NCBI GenBank assembly: GCA_964016885.1
Contig: OZ024743.1
Location: forward strand, 353,152,001 to 353,216,000
Length of the DNA: 64,000 bases
Direction of reading: 5' to 3'
DNA from: Eledone cirrhosa
Lineage: Eukaryota
In this document: positions 27,643 through 62,092 of the stretch, one piece after another
Position numbering within the stretch: position 1 is the first letter of the stretch
Layout of the letters: each line of letters opens with the position of its first letter
Translations under genes and position numbers: made by a program
Notes under the pieces: model-generated
The model's database searches: none
Told to the model about the DNA's origin: nothing
The model's input: the letters and a program-made list of their open reading frames with translations, nothing else

Positions 27643-27731
27643 ATAACTATTTTTCACTGGAAAAAATTTGTTACCATTTTCTTTTCCTTTTACTAATATA
27701 TCACAACTCGTGTGTTACACCTCTATTTTTT

Positions 27732-27784
<53 letters not shown>

Positions 27785-28314: not shown

Positions 28315-28418
<104 letters not shown>

Positions 28419-28419
28419 A

Positions 28420-28836
28420 TTTAAAAAAATAGAGGTGTAACACACGAGTTGTGATATATTAGTAAAAGGAAAAGAAAATGCTGACAAATTTTTCCTAGTG
28501 AAAAATAGTTAAATTAGGAATAAGTATAAATTAGTAATAAGTATTGGTTAGTATTCAATTTTAGTTTTAAGTTTTTACCGGTTGCGCATATCTAATGCTT
28601 TTCATAAATAATTTTGAGATAGAGCGCTCGTGATGTTTTCTCTAATCTGATTAGAGCAAACATCACGAGCGCTCTATCTCAAAATTATTTTTGAAAAAGA
28701 TTAGAAATGCGCAACCGGTAAAAACTTAAAACTAAAACTGAATACTAACCAATACTTATTACTAATTTATACTTATTCCTAATTAAACTATTTTTAAATG
28801 GGAAAAATGTTTTCAGCATTTTCTTTTCCTTTTACT

Positions 28837-28838
<2 letters not shown>
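28420..28838. mobile_element. Inverted pair of pseudo-LTRs of the 55.7-61.1 kb PLE family
   Basis: Arms centred near 28645 match 55895-56110; a further piece is at 27643-27735. Confidence 0.8.
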
Positions 28839-28934
<96 letters not shown>

Positions 28935-28939
28935 AATAT

Positions 28940-30122
<1,183 letters not shown>

Positions 30123-30708
30123 TTTATAATGACACACAACCCATGTCACCAGAATATATTCAACACTGCCAAAGCAAACCTACCGATCATTGCACAAAGA
30201 AATTAATTAAAAGGTTTAATCACAGACCGAGCTTTGATTCTTAGTAAAAGACAGCCGAAAAATTTGAAGCAATTACTAACAAAAGCAATTTTGACCTTAA
30301 CAACAAAGACCAATCATTCACTGTATCTAAATGCAATGATAGTCGATGTGGCACATGTCAGTTCATACATACTGGTCAATATATGAACACAAAAACTGGA
30401 AAAATATTCTCAAATGCAAATATGAACTGCAAAAGCAAAAATCTAATTTACTGCATTAAATGCCCGAATTGTGAAGAACTATATGTCGGTCAAACTGGAA
30501 ATGCACTATCGGAACGTGCACGGGTGCACCGACAGCAAATCAGATACCCAAATGTCCGTCAGATACCCCTGAGTAACCCTCTAGCAACATGTGGTCAGAA
30601 AATATTTATAGTATTTCCATACTACAAACTACACAGCCCAAGTGAAATCAAGAGAAAAATTAAAGAAAAGAATTTTATTGATACATTCCAACCCAAGCTA
30701 AATGAACA

Positions 30709-52654: not shown

Positions 52655-53391
52655 TTCTTCTGGTTTTATAATTTCACAAAGTTTTACTAATAGAGAGAGA
52701 GTCGGTTTCCAACATAGACACAAGACTCTCTCATTGGAATTTACACAACATCAACTAGGTAGATTATGTATGTAAGCATGCATGTGTAGATATGGATGTT
52801 ATTGTATGTGTGGATGTCTATGTTTTGAGTTGTATGTGTGCATGTGTATATGCTTTTCATCTGTATATGTGTATATGCAGTTATTAGATGCAAAATTTTT
52901 GGAATGTTTTACATATTTTATTGTTCCATTAATGGATTGTACTTGTAATTTCCTAACTAGTTGTGTTCTTTCTGTTCCTGTGAAGCCTAGCTTTTCAAGA
53001 TTTGTATTTAGGCAGTTACTAACATATCCCAGTGCCCCAATAATCACAGGCATAAATCTGAAGGTGTAATCAGGATGGAGTATCTGCAGATTTCTCATCA
53101 GTTCTGCATAAATATTCTCCTTTTCACTAATCTTTGATATTATATTGGCATCTGTTGGGCAGCTAATTTCCACTACTGTGCATGCTTTCTTCTCCCTGTC
53201 CCATATCATAATATCTGGTCTGTTATGCCTGCATTTTATTGGGGTTTTTACTGGAACATTCCACCAGTACTCTTTCATATTATGTACATGGATGTCTTCC
53301 ACATTGCTGTAGCTTTTAATGTGTTTATTATCGGGGCTATCTTTTTTACGAACTGCATTGTACAGTGTTTTGGCCACTACATCATGCCTCA
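52655..53391 (-). mobile_element. 3' end of RLE-type non-LTR retrotransposon (R4/Dong-like)
   Basis: RHDVVAK..YWWNVPV..HNRPDIMIWD..VVEISCP..EKENIY..PVIIGALG (RHD, PD..E restriction-like endonuclease); flanked by (ATGT)n. Confidence 0.85.
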
Positions 53392-54604
53392 TGTATGTAT
53401 GTATGTATGTATGTATGTATGTATGTATGTATGTATGTATGTATGTATGTATGTATGTATGTATGTGTACAACCTGTCTCATGGTCGGGACGTTGGCGAC
53501 TAAACTGGCAACCCCACCAAGGTTTCTTGGTGAGGAGGGTGACTTTGGACATCCTGCAGGACTAAAAACAAAACCTGTCAAAGGGCAAAGGAGCTCTTAA
53601 GAGTCAATGGCCATCCAAAATCACCGGGAGAGATGACCCTTAGCCTTTGTCAAGGCAGAATTCTAGGCGAAGGAAAACTCTGATATAACACCTGCAACCC
53701 TGATGGTATCCAATGATGTTGACTTGTTCTTCTTTTTGGTAAATATCATCTTGGTTAAGAGAGTGGGACTGGCTTTGTGCAGTGCCTTTGCTCACTATAA
53801 AAGCTTCACGGCACAGGCATTGCTTTATATCTGGAGATCTCTCTGCACTTGTCGTCACATGGTACCATGGGCCCAGCACTATGTGTCAATAATTGTCACA
53901 AGTGTAGTGTTTGTACCAGAGTTTTCAATACGCTGGCTGGACTAAAAAGTCACACTCGTTCAGCGCATCGGTAGGCGTTCTCCTACATGGATATAAAGTA
54001 GTGGCTGTACTCGAAAACGAGTTGGCAGCCACCATGTATGTGTGTGTATGTATGTATGCATGCATGCATGCATGTATGTATGTATGTATGCATGTATGTA
54101 TCTCTTCTTTGTTATACAACCCAACACGCCTGGCACTGAAGGGAGTAGTTGTACTGCTGCCTCTCTTTAAGACAGCGATAGGTAGGAAGACCTGTTGGTA
54201 GGAAGACCTGTTGACAAGATCCCGTATTCCTAGTTTGCCAATAATAAATTTTCAATAATTGTGGTTGGCAAATTTGTTTCGGGCGTCGAAACCAAAATAT
54301 TCTGGTCCAGGTGAAGAAGAATGTGTTAGTATCTCAACTCTTTCTTTGTTAAACTGCTGGAATTCTTATAGCTTTTTCATCGATATCCGCCTGATCGTTT
54401 CCACATGCGTACTGCAGTCCTATGAACGAATCGATATGATATGCTCTAAGGCTAATTTCCACCCGTGATCTTTGCTGTTGTACAGCTAAATCAATAACTC
54501 ATGTCAACAAATCGATTTAAATTCTGTACCTTACTTACTGTGGTTACCCCCGATTTAACCCGGGACTCTCTCTCACACACACACATATATATATGTGTGT
54601 GCGC

Positions 54605-54668
<64 letters not shown>

Positions 54669-55604
54669 GTGTGTGCGCGTGCGTGCGTGTGTGCGTGTGG
54701 GTGGGTGGGTGGGGGTGGGTGGGGGTGGGGGGGTGCGCGCGTGTGTGTGTGTGTGTGTGTGAAAAATCACAGATGCTCAGACGTTAATATTCAATATATC
54801 ATTTATTAATAATTCTGACACGTGTTTAGCTGCAATTGTATACGCCTATATATTGTCTGTCTATTTAACTTTATTTAATTACTGTTCAGTTCTGTCTTCA
54901 TCTAATTGTTAAGTTAATGGCTAAATTAGGTATCTGTTTAAATGGGTTTAGTTGGGTTGTAATTTGGTTTCTGTTTCGTTCAGTTTTATTTAATCGTTAA
55001 GCGAGTGATTTATTTCGGTGAGATTGCTTTATTTAAGCTTAGTTGTAAGTTTTTTTCGATTGTAGGTAATATAGTGAGTTTAATATGGGTTGATGTAAGT
55101 TCTGTTTATGTGGAAGTAGTCACGGTGTTATTTTGAGTAATTGATATGATTATATATCGAGTCACCTTTCGATTTGATTTCGGTTCGGTTCTATTTTATT
55201 TAAATGTTAAGTTGATTTCGGTTTTCTTTTGTGTTGGTATTTTGTAGATTTAGTCTGTTAATTGGTGTTTGATTTGATTCTGTGTAGGGTACACTACTGA
55301 ATGCCTAACGGAATGGTAGTCGCTGCAGATAAACAGAAACGACGTCATCAAACAGCTGTCACCGATGTACAGGTACTTAAGGTGGGTTTATTTATTGTTT
55401 TATGCGTGGTTGGGAAGTGCTTCTTATGGGCATGGTTATTATTTTTTTTTTTAGTATGTTTCGTATGAAGTGTATATAGTAGTTTAGGTCGGTAATTTGA
55501 TGGTATTTGTTTGGTTCGTTTTTTTGTTTTATTTCACACGTTTATGATATGACATATAATAGTTTTGGTGATATATATGATTCAGTGAATTACTGGTGGT
55601 GGTA

Positions 55605-55701
<97 letters not shown>

Positions 55702-55929
55702 CTCAGTCAGCCGACACAAACCTACATTTGGCGCAAAATCAATTTTTTACATTCACATGACCTCTACCGACCAATCAAAATTGTTTTGACCACAAGAATT
55801 TTTGCAACACGAATTGGCGCAAAACTTATTTTAATACCACTGGAGCCACTTTTTTAACATAAAAACAGGTAGAATTCCCAAAACTAATCAGATCAGAGCA
55901 AACATCACGGACGCTCTATCTCAAAATTA

Positions 55930-55966
55930 TTTTTGAAAAGCATTAGAAATGCGCAACCGGTAAAAA
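55930..55966 (+). ncRNA. Atypical hammerhead-like motif (also 60972-61008, 28688-28724, 28572-28608 minus)
   Basis: TTT-TTGAAAA-GCAT(tagaa)ATGC-GCAA-CCGG-TA-AAA. Confidence 0.5.
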
Positions 55967-56137
55967 CCAAAACTCAATACTAACCAATCTATTACTAATT
56001 CTCACTTATTCCTAATTAAACTATTTTTCACTCTGAACAATTTGTCAGCATTTTCTATTCCGTTTACCAACATATCATAACTCGTGTGTTACACCTCTAT
56101 TCTTTTAAATATCATATCCTCACACGAGATACAGAAA

Positions 56138-57414
56138 ATGCCAACAAAAACGGATACAACCCTCATCAACACAAATGAAGAGATTCTACAGGAACTCAAG
56201 AAAATTAACACCAACCTATCTGTGCTGGTCGACAAACTTGACTCCACAAATAAGGAAACCGTCACCGGATACAAACCCCCCGAAATCGGCGATAAACTCC
56301 AAAACCTTTGCGATACGATCCAAACTATGTTCACTACTACCAACCCAGGAAAAACCAACGAAGAACCATGTGAGATTGATTCATACAAAATGAAAATTCG
56401 AACAATTCCAAAATGGAACAAATCCCTCAGAGACAGAAAGTTCTCATTCTGGAAGATGATACAAAATCACAACAAAGCGGAGATATATGAAAAATGGCTT
56501 AACTCAACGCCTCTAACTCTCCCCCGTAAAATACAAATAAAGTCCATTCCAAATGAACCCGAACCTCAAAGACACCTTAGGGAAAGAATGGTATTGGAAA
56601 AAATGAAGACAGAAATTGAACTTCTTAAACTGAGGGCCCAGACAAATGAGGAAACAATCAAAACCATCGATGAAGAGATCCTCCTGGAAATCAACAATAA
56701 AACTGAAGGCCCCAAGATATAGAAGATCTCCAAATTATGGAAAGGGGACTGCAACAGAGAAGAACTGAAATCCCTTCAACGCTGGGAAAAAAATGCCGCT
56801 TGGTTCCTACACTATGAATCGATTTTCAAACGGATTACACCTCCAATAACCCGTTCATAAAAATAGGAAAACCCATAACTGAACCGCACAACAACTTCGC
56901 AAACCCCCAAGCCACTAACAAACGAAGAAGGAAGCACCACACCGAAGATGAACTTCCCAACCTCGCTACCATAAGAAGGAACAAAAACCCTAGAAATCAT
57001 CTCCCCCAGAATGACATTTATAACTTTCCCCCTTCAAGGCGACACCATACCAAATCACTCAACTGCTACGCGGATGCCTCATCGTCAAACATAGGGAAAA
57101 GATACCACCACCATGATAGATGTAACAACTTCCCCGCTTCAAGGGGACAGCAAGGTAATTTCCATTTTCTCAACTCTCGCTTCCACAATACACAACAAAC
57201 CCACACCACACGATACAACCAACAACGTAGGCCACCTATAACACCACAATCCAACATGGCACATAGAAACACACACCCATACTCGCAGTACAGGAACACC
57301 CCATTCAATCTACAACCACCAACCCGAACCACATTTTACAACAACAAGGAATATAACAAACACAGGAGACCACTTAACATCAGCAGACAACCCCTCTACC
57401 CAACCATTTTTTAG
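56138..57414 (+). pseudogene. Upstream ORF1-like region of the PLE (helical/coiled-coil N-half, N/H/R/P-rich C-half)
   Basis: MPTKTDTT..EILQELKKINTNLSVLVDKL..LEKMKTEIELLKLRAQTNEETIKTIDEEI; one stop (56720) and one frameshift (about 56820), then open 56821-57414. Confidence 0.6.
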
Positions 57415-57583
57415 ACACAGCACACAGATACAGGCAAACAAGATAACACAAGACAGGGAGGAGAAACCGATAGTAATAAAAATTATCAATCTTACTAGTG
57501 CAGAACCAACACCCAACCTTATCAACTTACTCTCTAAAAGTCTTAAATTCACACTGACCCCACTACGTCCTAACTACTATGAA

Positions 57584-58939
57584 ATGAAGGAAGACATCAC
57601 AGACTTCTGTAGAAAGTTACGACTCAGTGAACAACTATTCGACCAGTACAATGAGGATGAATCATTAGCCAGAAATAGAAGCAATTACACCCCATCAAAA
57701 GGTAGAAATAAAATCCTGGACGAATTCTGTGAACATATCACAAACTTCCCTTACCAACACTTGCACAGACAAAAACACAAGCCAAACCTCAACAAGAAAG
57801 AATGGGAAGAATTAAATAGATTAAAAACCGACAGAACCATTACAATTAAAGAGGCTGATAAAGGGAATACAGTAGTCCTAATGGAGACAGAATTCTATAT
57901 CAACTTAGCGCTCTCCACTTTGGAAAACGAAACATACTACGAAAAGGCTGAACACTACAATCAACAGAAAATTATGAGAAACCTAAAAACTCTGATCAAC
58001 CAATACAAAGAAGGACTCACTAACAAGGAATTCAGCTTCATCACAGACTTCACAAGTAAATCCAGCCTTTTCTACGATATCCCTAAAGTACATAAAAGCG
58101 AATTAATAAGTAAGGCATGCAAGGAAGCCACAGACATAGTCATCAATGTCCCCTCACCCAATGATCTCAAATTAAGACCTATAATAGCAGGCCCCGCTTG
58201 CGAAACCCACCGCCTTAGCAACTTCATTGATACCCTTCTCAAGCCTTTTCTCAAACACATCAAAAGCTATATAAGGGACGACCTAGATATGCTTAATCAC
58301 TTCCCTAATATGCCACTTTCTGAACAAACCCTACTAGTGACGTTTGATGTAGTCAACCTATACTCCAATATCCCCCACAACCTAGGAATAGAAGCTATCC
58401 AATTCTGGCTGGATAATTACCACAATGAACTCCTACAACGCATCAAAAAAGAATTCGTGATAGAAGGACTCAAATTTATCTTGGAGAACAATTACTTCGT
58501 TTTCAATAACAAACCCTACAGGCAGAAATCTGGGACCGCTATGGGAACGAAAACAGCCCCCACTTATGCCAACCTAGTCATGGGATACCTGGAAATCACC
58601 CTCTACACTAAAGTCCTAAACAAATTTGGAAACACTCTCCACTTACACATAGAAAGGAACTGGAAGCGATATCTAGATGACTGCTTCATCCTTTGGCACG
58701 AAAACATCGAGAAACTTAAAGAATTTCACACCCTTATAAATGGGCTCAACACAAATATTAACTACACGATGGAATACAGCCATCAACAACTCCCCTTCCT
58801 CGACATCCTCATTAAGATCCATAACAAAAAAATAGAAACAGACATATACTACAAGCCCACAGACCCCAAGCAATATCTTCCTTTCAACTCTTGCCACCCT
58901 AGACACGTTAAAATTAATATTCCCTACAACTTAGCCTAG
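57584..58939 (+). CDS. PLE reverse transcriptase (frame open from 57242; continues after stops into thumb and GIY-YIG to about 59730)
   Basis: RT motifs as listed for the element; conserved IINL..LLSK.LKF..TP lies upstream of the first ATG. Confidence 0.85.
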   Translation: MKEDITDFCRKLRLSEQLFDQYNEDESLARNRSNYTPSKGRNKILDEFCEHITNFPYQHLHRQKHKPNLNKKEWEELNRLKTDRTITIKEADKGNTVVLMETEFYINLALSTLENETYYEKAEHYNQQKIMRNLKTLINQYKEGLTNKEFSFITDFTSKSSLFYDIPKVHKSELISKACKEATDIVINVPSPNDLKLRPIIAGPACETHRLSNFIDTLLKPFLKHIKSYIRDDLDMLNHFPNMPLSEQTLLVTFDVVNLYSNIPHNLGIEAIQFWLDNYHNELLQRIKKEFVIEGLKFILENNYFVFNNKPYRQKSGTAMGTKTAPTYANLVMGYLEITLYTKVLNKFGNTLHLHIERNWKRYLDDCFILWHENIEKLKEFHTLINGLNTNINYTMEYSHQQLPFLDILIKIHNKKIETDIYYKPTDPKQYLPFNSCHPRHVKINIPYNLA

Positions 58940-59942
58940 AGAATCTGTACTATAGTCTCCAATAAAAACACCTGCTACTTACGGCTACAAGAACTAAAGG
59001 ACACTCATAGGCAGGGACTACCCTGAATCACTAATTGACAATGGAATCCAAGGTGCCCTAAAACTCAGTACCCAGGACCTTAGACACCCTAAAGTAAATC
59101 AACCGAAACTAAAAGCTCTTCCATACATCTCCACACACAACCCCCTCAACAATGAGGCCTTTGACACCATCCTCCAGAACATCCCTGTGTTGAAAAAGGA
59201 CCATAGAATGAACCAAATCCTACGAACACACGATATCATAAAGAGCAAAAGACAATCTAAGTCAATGAAAAACATCCTAACACATGCCAAAGTACTGCCA
59301 ACCACAACAACGAAACCCACAGTAAAAAAAATGCGATAGACCCAACTGTGGCATTTGCATCAACCTAATAGAGGGTTCGGAATTCTATTTCAAAGAAGGA
59401 CAACGTTTTATAGTAAAACACAATTTCACATGCGCATCAGAAAATCTAATATATGTATTAACTTGCTCAGGTTGTCGAGAACAATACATAGGCCAGACCA
59501 AAAACAGCCTCCGCCAACGCATGACTGTCCATAGATCCCAAATTAAAATACGGGAATAGAGGAAAATACCACTGAGTGAACACATTGATACCTGTGCCGC
59601 CCAAAATCATCCCAACTTCAGAATCTTTCCCCTCTACAAATTTAAAGATAGTGCCACCCACACCCAGCGCATCAGCAAGCAATCTTACTTTATTAACAAA
59701 TACGGACCCCGTCTAAACACTTCTCCCTAAGACGAACCCACAACATACACACGTCAACATACATACCTACATCAGCATACATCTCTACCCACATATAAAC
59801 ACAATGACATACGTAAACACACATGTTCTATGGTGCAACACAAATATACACAAATTTGCATACCTTTTGATGTCTATAGATATAAACGTGCCGACTCACA
59901 CACATACATAAACGCACACATGCATTGCACACTGATGGGCAC

Positions 59943-60200
59943 ATACATATTTGTGCACAGGTATTCCAATACGGCAAGGCCTAATGAATTCCCCTTGCAG
60001 TACGTACAATCTGGACACACTCCAGATACATATTTGTGCACAGGTATACAATTTCTGGACACACTCCAGATACATGTGTACAATTTGTGCACAGGTATAC
60101 AATTTCTGGGCACACTCCAGATACATATTTGTGCACAGGTATTCCAATACGGCAAGGCCTAATGGATTCCCCTTGCAGTACGTACAATCTGGACACACTC
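59943..60200 (+). repeat. Tandem repeat in PLE 3' UTR
   Basis: Units start atacatatttgtgcacaggta and end ctggacacactccag; long-short-short-long arrangement. Confidence 0.8.
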
Positions 60201-60340
60201 ACACACACCTTGGTATTATGCCAATACTATATATCATTTCACACCTTTTATTATTAAGGTTTTTGATGTTCTATTGAGAGAATCGATTTTACTGAAAATA
60301 TCGAATAATGTACACCATTTTACCAGTAATAAATACTGGT

Positions 60341-60396
<56 letters not shown>

Positions 60397-60417
60397 ACGC
60401 GTACATTAACATACAAA

Positions 60418-60470
<53 letters not shown>

Positions 60471-60580
60471 CTCCGTATAAGACAAGAGCTGAAAAAATAT
60501 ATTTTAACATGTTAAAATATCCCCCACACACTTACAGACACATTCCTACTGACCATCCCTCTACCACGAATTACTCTGCT

Positions 60581-60611
<31 letters not shown>

Positions 60612-61109
60612 TCTTAATAGGCATTTGAACTATCAACAGGCTGCGGTTCGCACACACATCCCTGCTGCCCATTATCACAACAACGAACCTCTTTACTACT
60701 ACTACACACACACACACACATATTTGTTGTGAAAGACTTATTTCTCACTCAGCCGACACAAACCTACATTTGGCGCAAAATCAATTTTTTACATTCACAT
60801 GACCTCTACAGACCAATCAAAATTGTTTTGACCACAAGAATTTTTGCAACACGAATTGGCGCAAAACTTATTTTAATACCGCTGGAGCCACTTTTTTAAC
60901 ATAAAAACAGGTAGAATTCCCAAAACTAATCAGATCAGAGCAAACATCACGGACGCTCTATCTCAAAATTATTTTTGAAAAGCATTAGAAATGCGCAACC
61001 GGTAAAAACCAAAACTCAATACTAACCAATACTATTACTAATTCTCACTTATTCCTAATTAAACTATTTTTCACTCTGAACAATTTGTCAGCATTTTCTA
61101 TTCCGTTTA

Positions 61110-61164
<55 letters not shown>

Positions 61165-61166
<2 letters not shown>

Positions 61167-61540
61167 CAGAGTTTTGTAGCTTTCTTGAAGCCTTGTTAAA
61201 TAGGAAACACAAATTTAAATAATTTTGAAAACCAAAACAATGCGTTAGTAAGAACATTAAATCACCAAGATAACAAAAGAATCTTACCTTAGCAAATTTA
61301 ACGATCCCATTATCTAGGGTTACACCCTATGAGAGACTTGATCGGATTGACTTGTTTGTTTGGAGAACAGATTTAATTTAAATCTCATAGGGTCACTCCC
61401 TTGATAATGGGGTTTTAAACCCGAAATATTTGGGATGGTTAAATTTGCTAATGTAAGATTCTTTTCTTATCTTGGCGATTTAATGTTCTTACTAACGCAT
61501 TGTTTTGGGTTTCAAAATTATTTAAATTTGTGTTTCATAT
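61165..61540. mobile_element. Inverted-arm PLE remnant with HHR at 61397-61435
   Basis: 61203-61309 is the reverse complement of 61431-61536; TCCC-TTGATAA-TG-GGGTT(tta)AACCC-GAAA-TAT-TT-GGGA. Confidence 0.7.
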
Positions 61541-61924
61541 ATATGGAGTATCGCTTTTAGCTTTCTCCGATTATGTATTTATATATTTACTCTTGGAGCA
61601 ACAGATATGAACTTTCCCGATATAAGGTATGACTCTCTTTGTTTATTTTTTATATGAATATTGATTGTTTCTTGTATCTCATTCTCTTATTTTTGCCCGA
61701 GAAAATATCTATATGTGTCATAAAGCGATGCGCACATATAGTTATTTTTTCATATCCAATTGAGTTCTTAGCACATGGCTTGAATTCTTGTCAGAGTTCA
61801 ACGACCTGAGCATGTATTGTTTTTGGCGGTAGCTTCCTTCCTCCCATTTTCGGGATAGTGTGAGATTTTCTTAAGAACTGATGGTGATTATCGCTAAATA
61901 TTGATGTTGATTTGGTTATCAATA

Positions 61925-62092
61925 TTAATTGATTCTACTTTAGGCACAAGGCCAGCAATTACCCAGTACATTACTGGTACTTTATTTTATCGACCCCGTA
62001 AGGATGAAAGGCAAAGTTAACCTCGGCGGGATTTGAACTCAGACTGTAAAGGGACGTAACTATGCTAGAAAACATGGCGTCCAACCCTCTAA
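61925..62092 (-). mobile_element. Nin/Deu-domain tRNA SINE
   Basis: Same consensus. Confidence 0.82.

Follow-up and report, generated by a model that had tools for sequence, protein, structure and literature searches.

The window, a 64-kb stretch of DNA, contains a Penelope-like element (PLE) that sits between two (TA)n tracts and inside 380-nt direct repeats. Its 5' edge is formed by a (TA)n microsatellite (55608..55700), the likely insertion target, and is followed by the parts of the element, all on the plus strand. First comes a 5' pseudo-LTR (pLTR; 55697..56075), which shows 98.7% identity across 380 nt to the 3' pseudo-LTR (60739..61118); behind the latter, (TA)n continues up to 61165. 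In the family form, ORF1 (56138..57446) has a length of about 436 aa, obtained by arithmetic from 1309 nt plus 2 bases taken from other copies. It consists of a conserved half that is predicted to be all-helical and coiled-coil-like (56138..56830) and a low-complexity half rich in N, R, Q, P and H (56830..57406), which is predicted to be disordered in a homologue model. In family copies, the slippery heptamer T TTT TTA (57407..57413) is in phase with ORF1, and the family-form ORF1 stop, TAA at 57444..57446, is located 12 codons past the F codon of the heptamer. The reverse transcriptase (RT) frame stands at -1 relative to ORF1 and runs from RT through thumb and Cys linker to the GIY-YIG endonuclease (EN; frame 57407..59730); its conserved N-terminal motif IINL..LLSK.LKF.LTP (57482..57562) is situated 5' of the first RT-frame ATG (57584). 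The RT is of the PLE type (RVT_1, E 2.1e-7), and an RT homologue search found 573 proteins, many of which combine RT and GIY-YIG; among the named relatives, that of Octopus sinensis is the most identical (68% across 75% of the query), which makes a cephalopod host probable. The linker, of the form CX4CxxC, and the endonuclease together occupy 59326..59730; the linker CDRPNCGIC follows 59326, with the same pattern in all four full-length clade relatives labelled A, and the GIY-YIG signature LIYVLTCSGCREQYIG is legible directly in the window, where the PF01541 match (E 1.5e-4, 22.4 bits) scores 0.2 bits below the cut-off of 22.6. ORF1 is damaged in this copy at 56720-56722 (TAG), near 56822 and near 57398, and the RT-EN frame is interrupted by TAG at 58937, frame breaks at about 59000 and 59330, and TAG at 59557. 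The window copy of the element is dead.

Several further features surround this element. Part of the pLTR (55884-56117) recurs at 28413-28890 and 27645-27779 with 70-88% identity and in both orientations, and the depth of the public run X1 in the bin 56050-56118 is more than 100 times that of the next bin, a figure that loose (TA)n ends may inflate; the recurrence and the depth peak suggest a very high-copy non-autonomous derivative. The T/G-rich region 54800-55610 resembles the reverse strand of pLTR-like sequence and terminates, as does the 3' pLTR, in TACCAA(TA)n; it may mark the terminus of a further element lying in that microsatellite. Short tandem duplications (an 83-nt pair at 98% and 44-nt units) and (CA)n tracts occupy 59940-60200, past the stop codon of the endonuclease and ahead of the 3' pLTR. 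A decayed fragment of another GIY-YIG PLE is found at about 30120-30640 (tblastx 33-43% to the endonuclease region). On the minus strand, a 265-codon frame (52799-53596) is interrupted by an HTYI microsatellite and gave no convincing Pfam match; its pattern RHD...W...PD...D...E resembles that of the restriction-like endonuclease with which non-LTR elements end at the C-terminus. Searches of 54000-62000 yielded neither an Rfam hammerhead nor a match to the core pattern, although minimal variants may escape such searches, and the matches of the Rfam search were limited to miRNA models hitting microsatellites.

As it stands in this copy, the junction between the two coding regions reads ATT TTT TAG (57406-57414), which closes the upstream frame on the TTTTTTA run at 57407-57413, and these coordinates, given by the first-pass annotation, are correct. 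The RT frame is indeed open across the site (TTT TTT AGA), with IINL beginning at 57482 and the first RT-frame ATG 59 codons past the heptamer. The roughly 1.3 kb of coding-like sequence reported ahead of the RT is present, but it does not form one open frame here, as it contains the TAG at 56720-56722 and a break near 56822. Two ways of joining the frames had been proposed: a +1 shift at UUU-UAG as written, or slippage by -1 on the heptamer if one base had been lost upstream.

Contigs of four public runs (X1, X4, X6 and X7, from three studies) were aligned to 56050-58100, keeping in mind that contigs under-report indels. At 56720, other copies read G instead (6254.1 of 6254.2 depth in X1, 4.64 of 4.64 in X4, 3.3 of 3.3 in X6 and 201.5 of 222.8 in X7), which converts TAG to GAG, and in 4/4 runs one base is inserted behind 56822 or 56820. 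A further C is inserted behind 57398 in X1 (2330 of 7470 depth, 3 contigs), in X7 (6426 of 8974, 21 contigs) and in X4 (8.86 of 8.86, a single contig over 57091-57624), whereas run X6 has no coverage there; in X1, the base is carried by 31% of depth, compared to 50% for the control indel at 56822, so that a subfamily in the form of the window copy may exist. No indel within the T6A run is among the contig differences listed. With these corrections, ORF1 becomes by arithmetic a single frame of 436 codons that reads T TTT TTA and ends at 57444-57446, and the RT frame lies at -1, opening just 10 codons before the heptamer. Other copies are thus free of all three ORF1 breaks, and the third difference, the base at 57398, places the heptamer in -1 phase. 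The suggestion of a heptamer whose phase was obscured by a lost base is thus borne out, and the +1 reading, which depends on the base missing from this copy, likely reflects decay of the window copy.

The same junction was sought among 123 related loci retrieved with an RT alignment, made up of 47 from genome_contigs and 76 from metagenome_contigs (from the best 80 of 442 confirmed stretches). An ORF1-profile match and an RT N-terminus occur together in 6/123 loci, five of which carry TTTTTTA (L048, L049, L052, L054 and L056) and one TTTTTTG (L002), all in ORF1 phase and with the RT at -1. In each of these six, the RT frame opens 0-12 codons before the heptamer and its first ATG lies beyond the IxNLS motif (read by eye in L054). 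Two additional loci, L059 with TTTTTTG and L055 with AAAAAAC, show the same phase; the portion of ORF1 on their contigs is too short for a profile match. An in-phase slippery heptamer is therefore present in 8/8 clade loci with junction DNA (5 TTTTTTA, 2 TTTTTTG, 1 AAAAAAC), which answers the earlier call to examine conservation of the T6A run. As a control for chance, the ORF1 bodies of five relatives were scanned, and in-phase TTTTTT(A/G) occurred at 0/1435 codon positions. An RT tree of 42 rows, built from fetched loci only, unites the window element, four of the six loci, L055 and L059 in one clade with an SH-aLRT value of 99; the tree excludes L054 and L056, which are broken or truncated. 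Clade RTs are 32-47% identical to the window RT where measured. The eight loci are not eight independent cases, since L049, L054 and L056 share an assembly prefix and the junctions of L049 and L056 are similar, and L002 and L054 are themselves decayed. Locus L049 comprises two tandem units in which ORF1 and RT form separate open frames, of 434 and 784 codons. The frame relation that was to be verified across the family is one of separate ORF1 and RT frames, with the RT at -1 and no continuous ORF among the clade loci compared.

Further searches were directed at the spread of ORF1. The profile detected one more locus with a match (L125), whereas a search of 380 genomes returned two marginal matches (E 9e-4) that were not used; 0/87 pattern matches of ORF1 alignment A4 in genome_contigs were confirmed, adding no loci, and viral_contigs gave 0/60. 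Many of the animal retroelements among P0168, P0179, P0221, P0240 and L001-L047 are filed in public databases under the names of bacterial symbionts or MAGs; the bacterial labels on genome_contigs records are most likely host contamination, and mis-assignment of such records is noted in excerpts of PMC8557442.

At the protein level, the N-terminal 194 residues of ORF1 were compared by phmmer with 1.84 billion representatives, giving 382 matches, of which the best 150 were examined. Among the matches listed, 57/69 ORF1 homologues of at least 340 aa contain FL or FF within the last 35 residues, compared to 3/69, 6/69 and 8/69 in control windows. In 8/69 long homologues, FL/FF is absent from the last 45 residues, with some ending in FR and others appearing truncated; these were excluded, and residue and distance counts use the 61 homologues with FL/FF in that range. 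The residue preceding F never has a codon unable to end in T (M, W, E, Q or K; 0/61 versus 20% background). An AlphaFold model of the homologue P0012, based on a 10-sequence alignment, consists of long helices across residues 30-263 (pLDDT 87-98 across 111-260) and a disordered tail, and the window ORF1 protein shows heptad patterns. The proposal of a separate helical, coiled-coil-like ORF1 ahead of a GIY-YIG-bearing RT is in agreement with both the homologue model and the homologue searches. Foldseek comparison of the model with PDB and BFVD gave no matches at E<=0.001, the Atlas yielded no usable match, and no Pfam family is common to 44 ORF1 members. Alignment of the helical domain by hhalign with the ORF1 of a second lineage (described below) and with the N-terminus of single-ORF PLEs gave 0.8% and 0.5%, and both comparisons align a P-I-I-P-R-K-F-like motif; judged from sequence comparison, the domain would be remotely related at best to the usual PLE N-terminus.

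These observations make it very probable that this Neptune-like element family uses programmed -1 frameshifting. Most ribosomes would terminate 12 codons past the heptamer and release free ORF1, which is likely an RNA-binding or scaffold protein with a role like that of gag or L1 ORF1p. A minority would slip back by one base on U UUU UUA to produce an ORF1-RT-EN fusion of about 1200 aa, and restricting the shift to a minority would give a high ORF1-to-enzyme ratio.

An improbable alternative is that ribosomes reinitiate, or initiate internally, close to the ORF1 stop and so synthesize RT-EN as a free protein, FL being kept for protein reasons. An IxNLS-type pattern is found near the called start of 51/120 RT database proteins, in many cases preceded by a called M at a distance of 5-14 residues, which is about where the ORF1 stop lies, and some families may have their own RT start; moreover, a stop-start overlap (TAATG, ATGA) would also yield a -1 relation and could fix the position of the stop. 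The called M may, however, be GTG or TTG picked by gene callers, and in the window and the six loci there is no RT-frame ATG between heptamer and IxNLS, and the ORF1 stops are TAA or TAG without an overlapping RT-frame ATG. In addition, a signal at the nucleotide level is indicated by the third-position T before F and by L055, which has changed to AAAAAAC.

Splicing, in which TTTTTTAG serves as acceptor and an intron links an upstream exon to the RT frame without slippage, is most unlikely. The sequence TTTTTTAG is present in the window and five relatives, the codon after FL/FF begins with G in 43/61 homologues, and introns are known to be kept by PLEs according to passages of PMC8557442. Nevertheless, this codon cannot begin with G in the remaining 18/61, and the AG needed by an acceptor is missing in 3/8 loci, namely L002 and L059, where TTTTTTG is followed by T, and L055 with AAAAAAC. 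An acceptor would also have no reason to keep one ORF1 codon phase, and five donor-like sites upstream do not offer a suitable exon when phased by hand: the three inside ORF1 join to a non-RT frame, and with the two in the pLTR the first RT motif would not be preceded by an ATG. Since three of eight loci are devoid of the AG and one exchange leads to another classic heptamer, slippage is favoured over splicing.

There is hardly any probability that the frames are connected by +1 slippage at UUU-UAG, be it in one subfamily or more widely. The window copy reads so and 69% of X1 depth at 57398 is without the extra base, but the base is found in X4 (100%) and X7 (72%), X1 likewise under-reports the control indel at 56822 (50%) that is needed for an open ORF1, 8/8 relatives stand at -1, and the window copy has at least six other breaks. 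It is equally hard to credit that the family is truly single-ORF and the frame break a product of decay: this is the published norm in passages of PMC8557442, and PLEs with an in-frame N-terminal helical domain were found (L017, L062 and L066; P0277 and P0281), but the same -1 phase and heptamer recur in 8/8 clade loci whose RTs, where measured, diverge to 32-47% identity, and the two open, separate frames of the tandem L049 units contradict it. No ORF1-RT fusion is among the best 150 of 382 ORF1 matches, the longest of which has 541 aa and none of which has the RT N-motif. Similarly, no ORF1 domain precedes the RT in 144 RT homologues, a single weak match lying behind the RT, while the 24 RT homologues longer than 851 aa are all at most 36% identical and three of them match the ORF1 profile of the second lineage. 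A search for longer ORF1-containing proteins gave 0/973 candidates; searches for longer proteins, for ORF1 and RT alike, are weak tests.

Programmed -1 frameshifting raises the question of a stimulator. The absence of a clear hairpin downstream of the site, as first remarked, is confirmed by folding of the 50 nt that follow the heptamer, whose minimum free energy is 0 kcal/mol. A consensus fold of six junctions contained no pairs, scans for local hairpins and pseudoknots identified nothing conserved in the clade, and a clear hairpin is found at the junction of L048 only (z -4.1). A different regularity concerns the position of the ORF1 stop. Among the 61 homologues, the distance from F to the end is 12 codons in 24, 13-14 in 8, 3 in one and 15-43 in 28, so that tails longer than 12 codons occur in 36/61, whereas distances of 4-11 occur in 0/61 versus 29-41% expected if independent. 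At the DNA level, the F-to-stop distance is 12 in the window, L054 and L059, and 14, 14, 18, 19, 21 and 3 in the others. Mapped on an ORF1 tree from which the tails were excluded, the 12-codon state proves to be clustered (9 changes versus a shuffled mean of 20.1), and it persists in 19 rows of a 30-row clade with end branches of 0.4-1.3 changes per site, and the tail sequences at this distance are unrelated.

A stop 12 codons from F lies 33 nt from the UUA codon. In passages of Arpat et al. (2020, PMC7397865), the A-site offset is about 45 or 48 nt for a leading ribosome versus 15 nt for a trailing one, which corresponds to 30 or 33 nt, and the 12-codon stop position, as read from these sequences, would match this spacing of collided ribosomes. 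It can be tentatively imagined that a widespread invertebrate EN+ PLE clade uses structure-free -1 frameshifting in which a ribosome terminating at the ORF1 stop replaces the pseudoknot as roadblock. The ribosome paused at the stop would then block a trailing ribosome on U UUU UUA, a guess that is favoured although doubtful. Other candidate stimulators are long-range RNA pairing, a protein, or a heptamer that is slippery enough alone. If causal, the 12-codon rule would mean that termination drives -1 frameshifting in a natural system.

A second EN+ lineage with an RT about 30% identical was detected in at least 12 loci of one metagenome record (WLWD contigs) and likewise carries the Cys linker and endonuclease. 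Its upstream ORF (357-431 codons where complete) ends 2-4 codons past G GGT TTT/TTC, with the RT at -1; the sites are located at L083:405-510, L095:3539-3644, L100:905-1010, L107:3482-3587, L110:241-346, L111:1090-1195, L114:3629-3734, L117:757-862, L118:3662-3767 and L120:2196-2301, whereas L093 and L103 carry a variant site, and several of the loci are arranged in tandem arrays. Ten aligned junctions share two hairpins: a covarying one of 16 pairs (z -2.3 to -5.3), separated by 5 nt from the heptamer that follows it, and a weaker one located 6-9 nt past the heptamer; 11 of the 19 predicted pairs in total show two-sided changes. The ORF1 of this lineage has its homologue in single-ORF PLEs, where it forms the N-terminus in one frame with the RT (P0277, E 3.5e-13). 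The different heptamer with its flanking hairpins suggests that the frame switch arose, or was rebuilt, more than once. Other EN+ PLE loci (L067, L071, L075, L086 and L088) have upstream frames of 231-715 codons that slightly overlap the beginning of the RT frame, in one or the other phase, and a pattern scan revealed no heptamer in them. Loci between the lineages (L007:3713, L011:2819-4040, L013:3764 and L063:2596-3390) possess a separate upstream frame with the RT at -1, in some cases with GGGTTTT or TTTTTTA distant from the stop.

In the literature, canonical EN+ PLEs are described as single ORFs (passages of Craig et al., 2021, PMC8557442), and excerpts of PMC6431247 distinguish PLEs having a single ORF with RT and GIY-YIG from those having two ORFs without endonuclease. 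The legend of Fig. 1 in PMC8557442 states that ORF1 can be split off by a frameshift with a pseudoknot, with the clade not named. Apart from this figure, which is known by its legend alone, the literature search found no frameshift described for EN+ PLEs, and the portions covered of PMC6515669, PMC3846280 and PMC5408684 hold nothing on frameshifting in EN+ elements. In one search, the clade extends to 382 ORF1 clusters at 50% identity, and named RT relatives come from octopus, mussel and oyster. A large EN+ clade with a gag-pol-like two-frame layout changes the annotation of PLEs described as single-ORF, as gene callers truncate the RT to a start further downstream, and ORF1 is left without a name. 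This layout also implies a stoichiometric structural protein in a PLE particle, and the mechanism of PLE transposition is poorly known.

Among known systems, the element resembles the Neptune clade of EN+ PLEs as portrayed in parts of PMC8557442, with which it shares the PLE-type RT, C-terminal GIY-YIG and direct pLTRs, as well as a CX2-5CxxC linker spaced, by eye, as in Neptune1_Nv (Fig. S2). It differs from Neptune elements, which are described there as single-ORF, in that its family keeps ORF1 in a frame apart, closed by a stop codon of its own, and conserves the heptamer. Because it agrees with Neptune in RT, endonuclease, linker and pLTRs but not in the single ORF, it is likely Neptune-like rather than a canonical member, an assignment made from these features. 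No pseudoknot was found at the window junction, in contrast to the frameshift with pseudoknot of the Fig. 1 legend in PMC8557442, for which the clade is not named. Two ORFs with a coiled-coil ORF1 5' of the RT are also known from the EN-less Athena and Terminon PLEs (excerpts of PMC6431247 and PMC5408684). Unlike those, the window element has a GIY-YIG endonuclease and is flanked by (TA)n instead of telomeric repeats. The -1 frameshift of HIV-1 gag-pol uses U UUU UUA and follows a logic of structural protein and enzyme, and the window family shares both the heptamer and this logic, while it differs from retroviral gag-pol in the lack of a detected downstream stem-loop and of LTR, gag or integrase homology, and in its conserved 12-codon stop distance. 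In SARS-CoV-2, the position of the 0-frame stop tunes -1 frameshifting via trailing ribosomes (sections of Bhatt et al., 2021, PMC8168617); there, the stop lets the pseudoknot refold, whereas the window family showed no structure and has its stop at a distance that equals the length of one collided ribosome.
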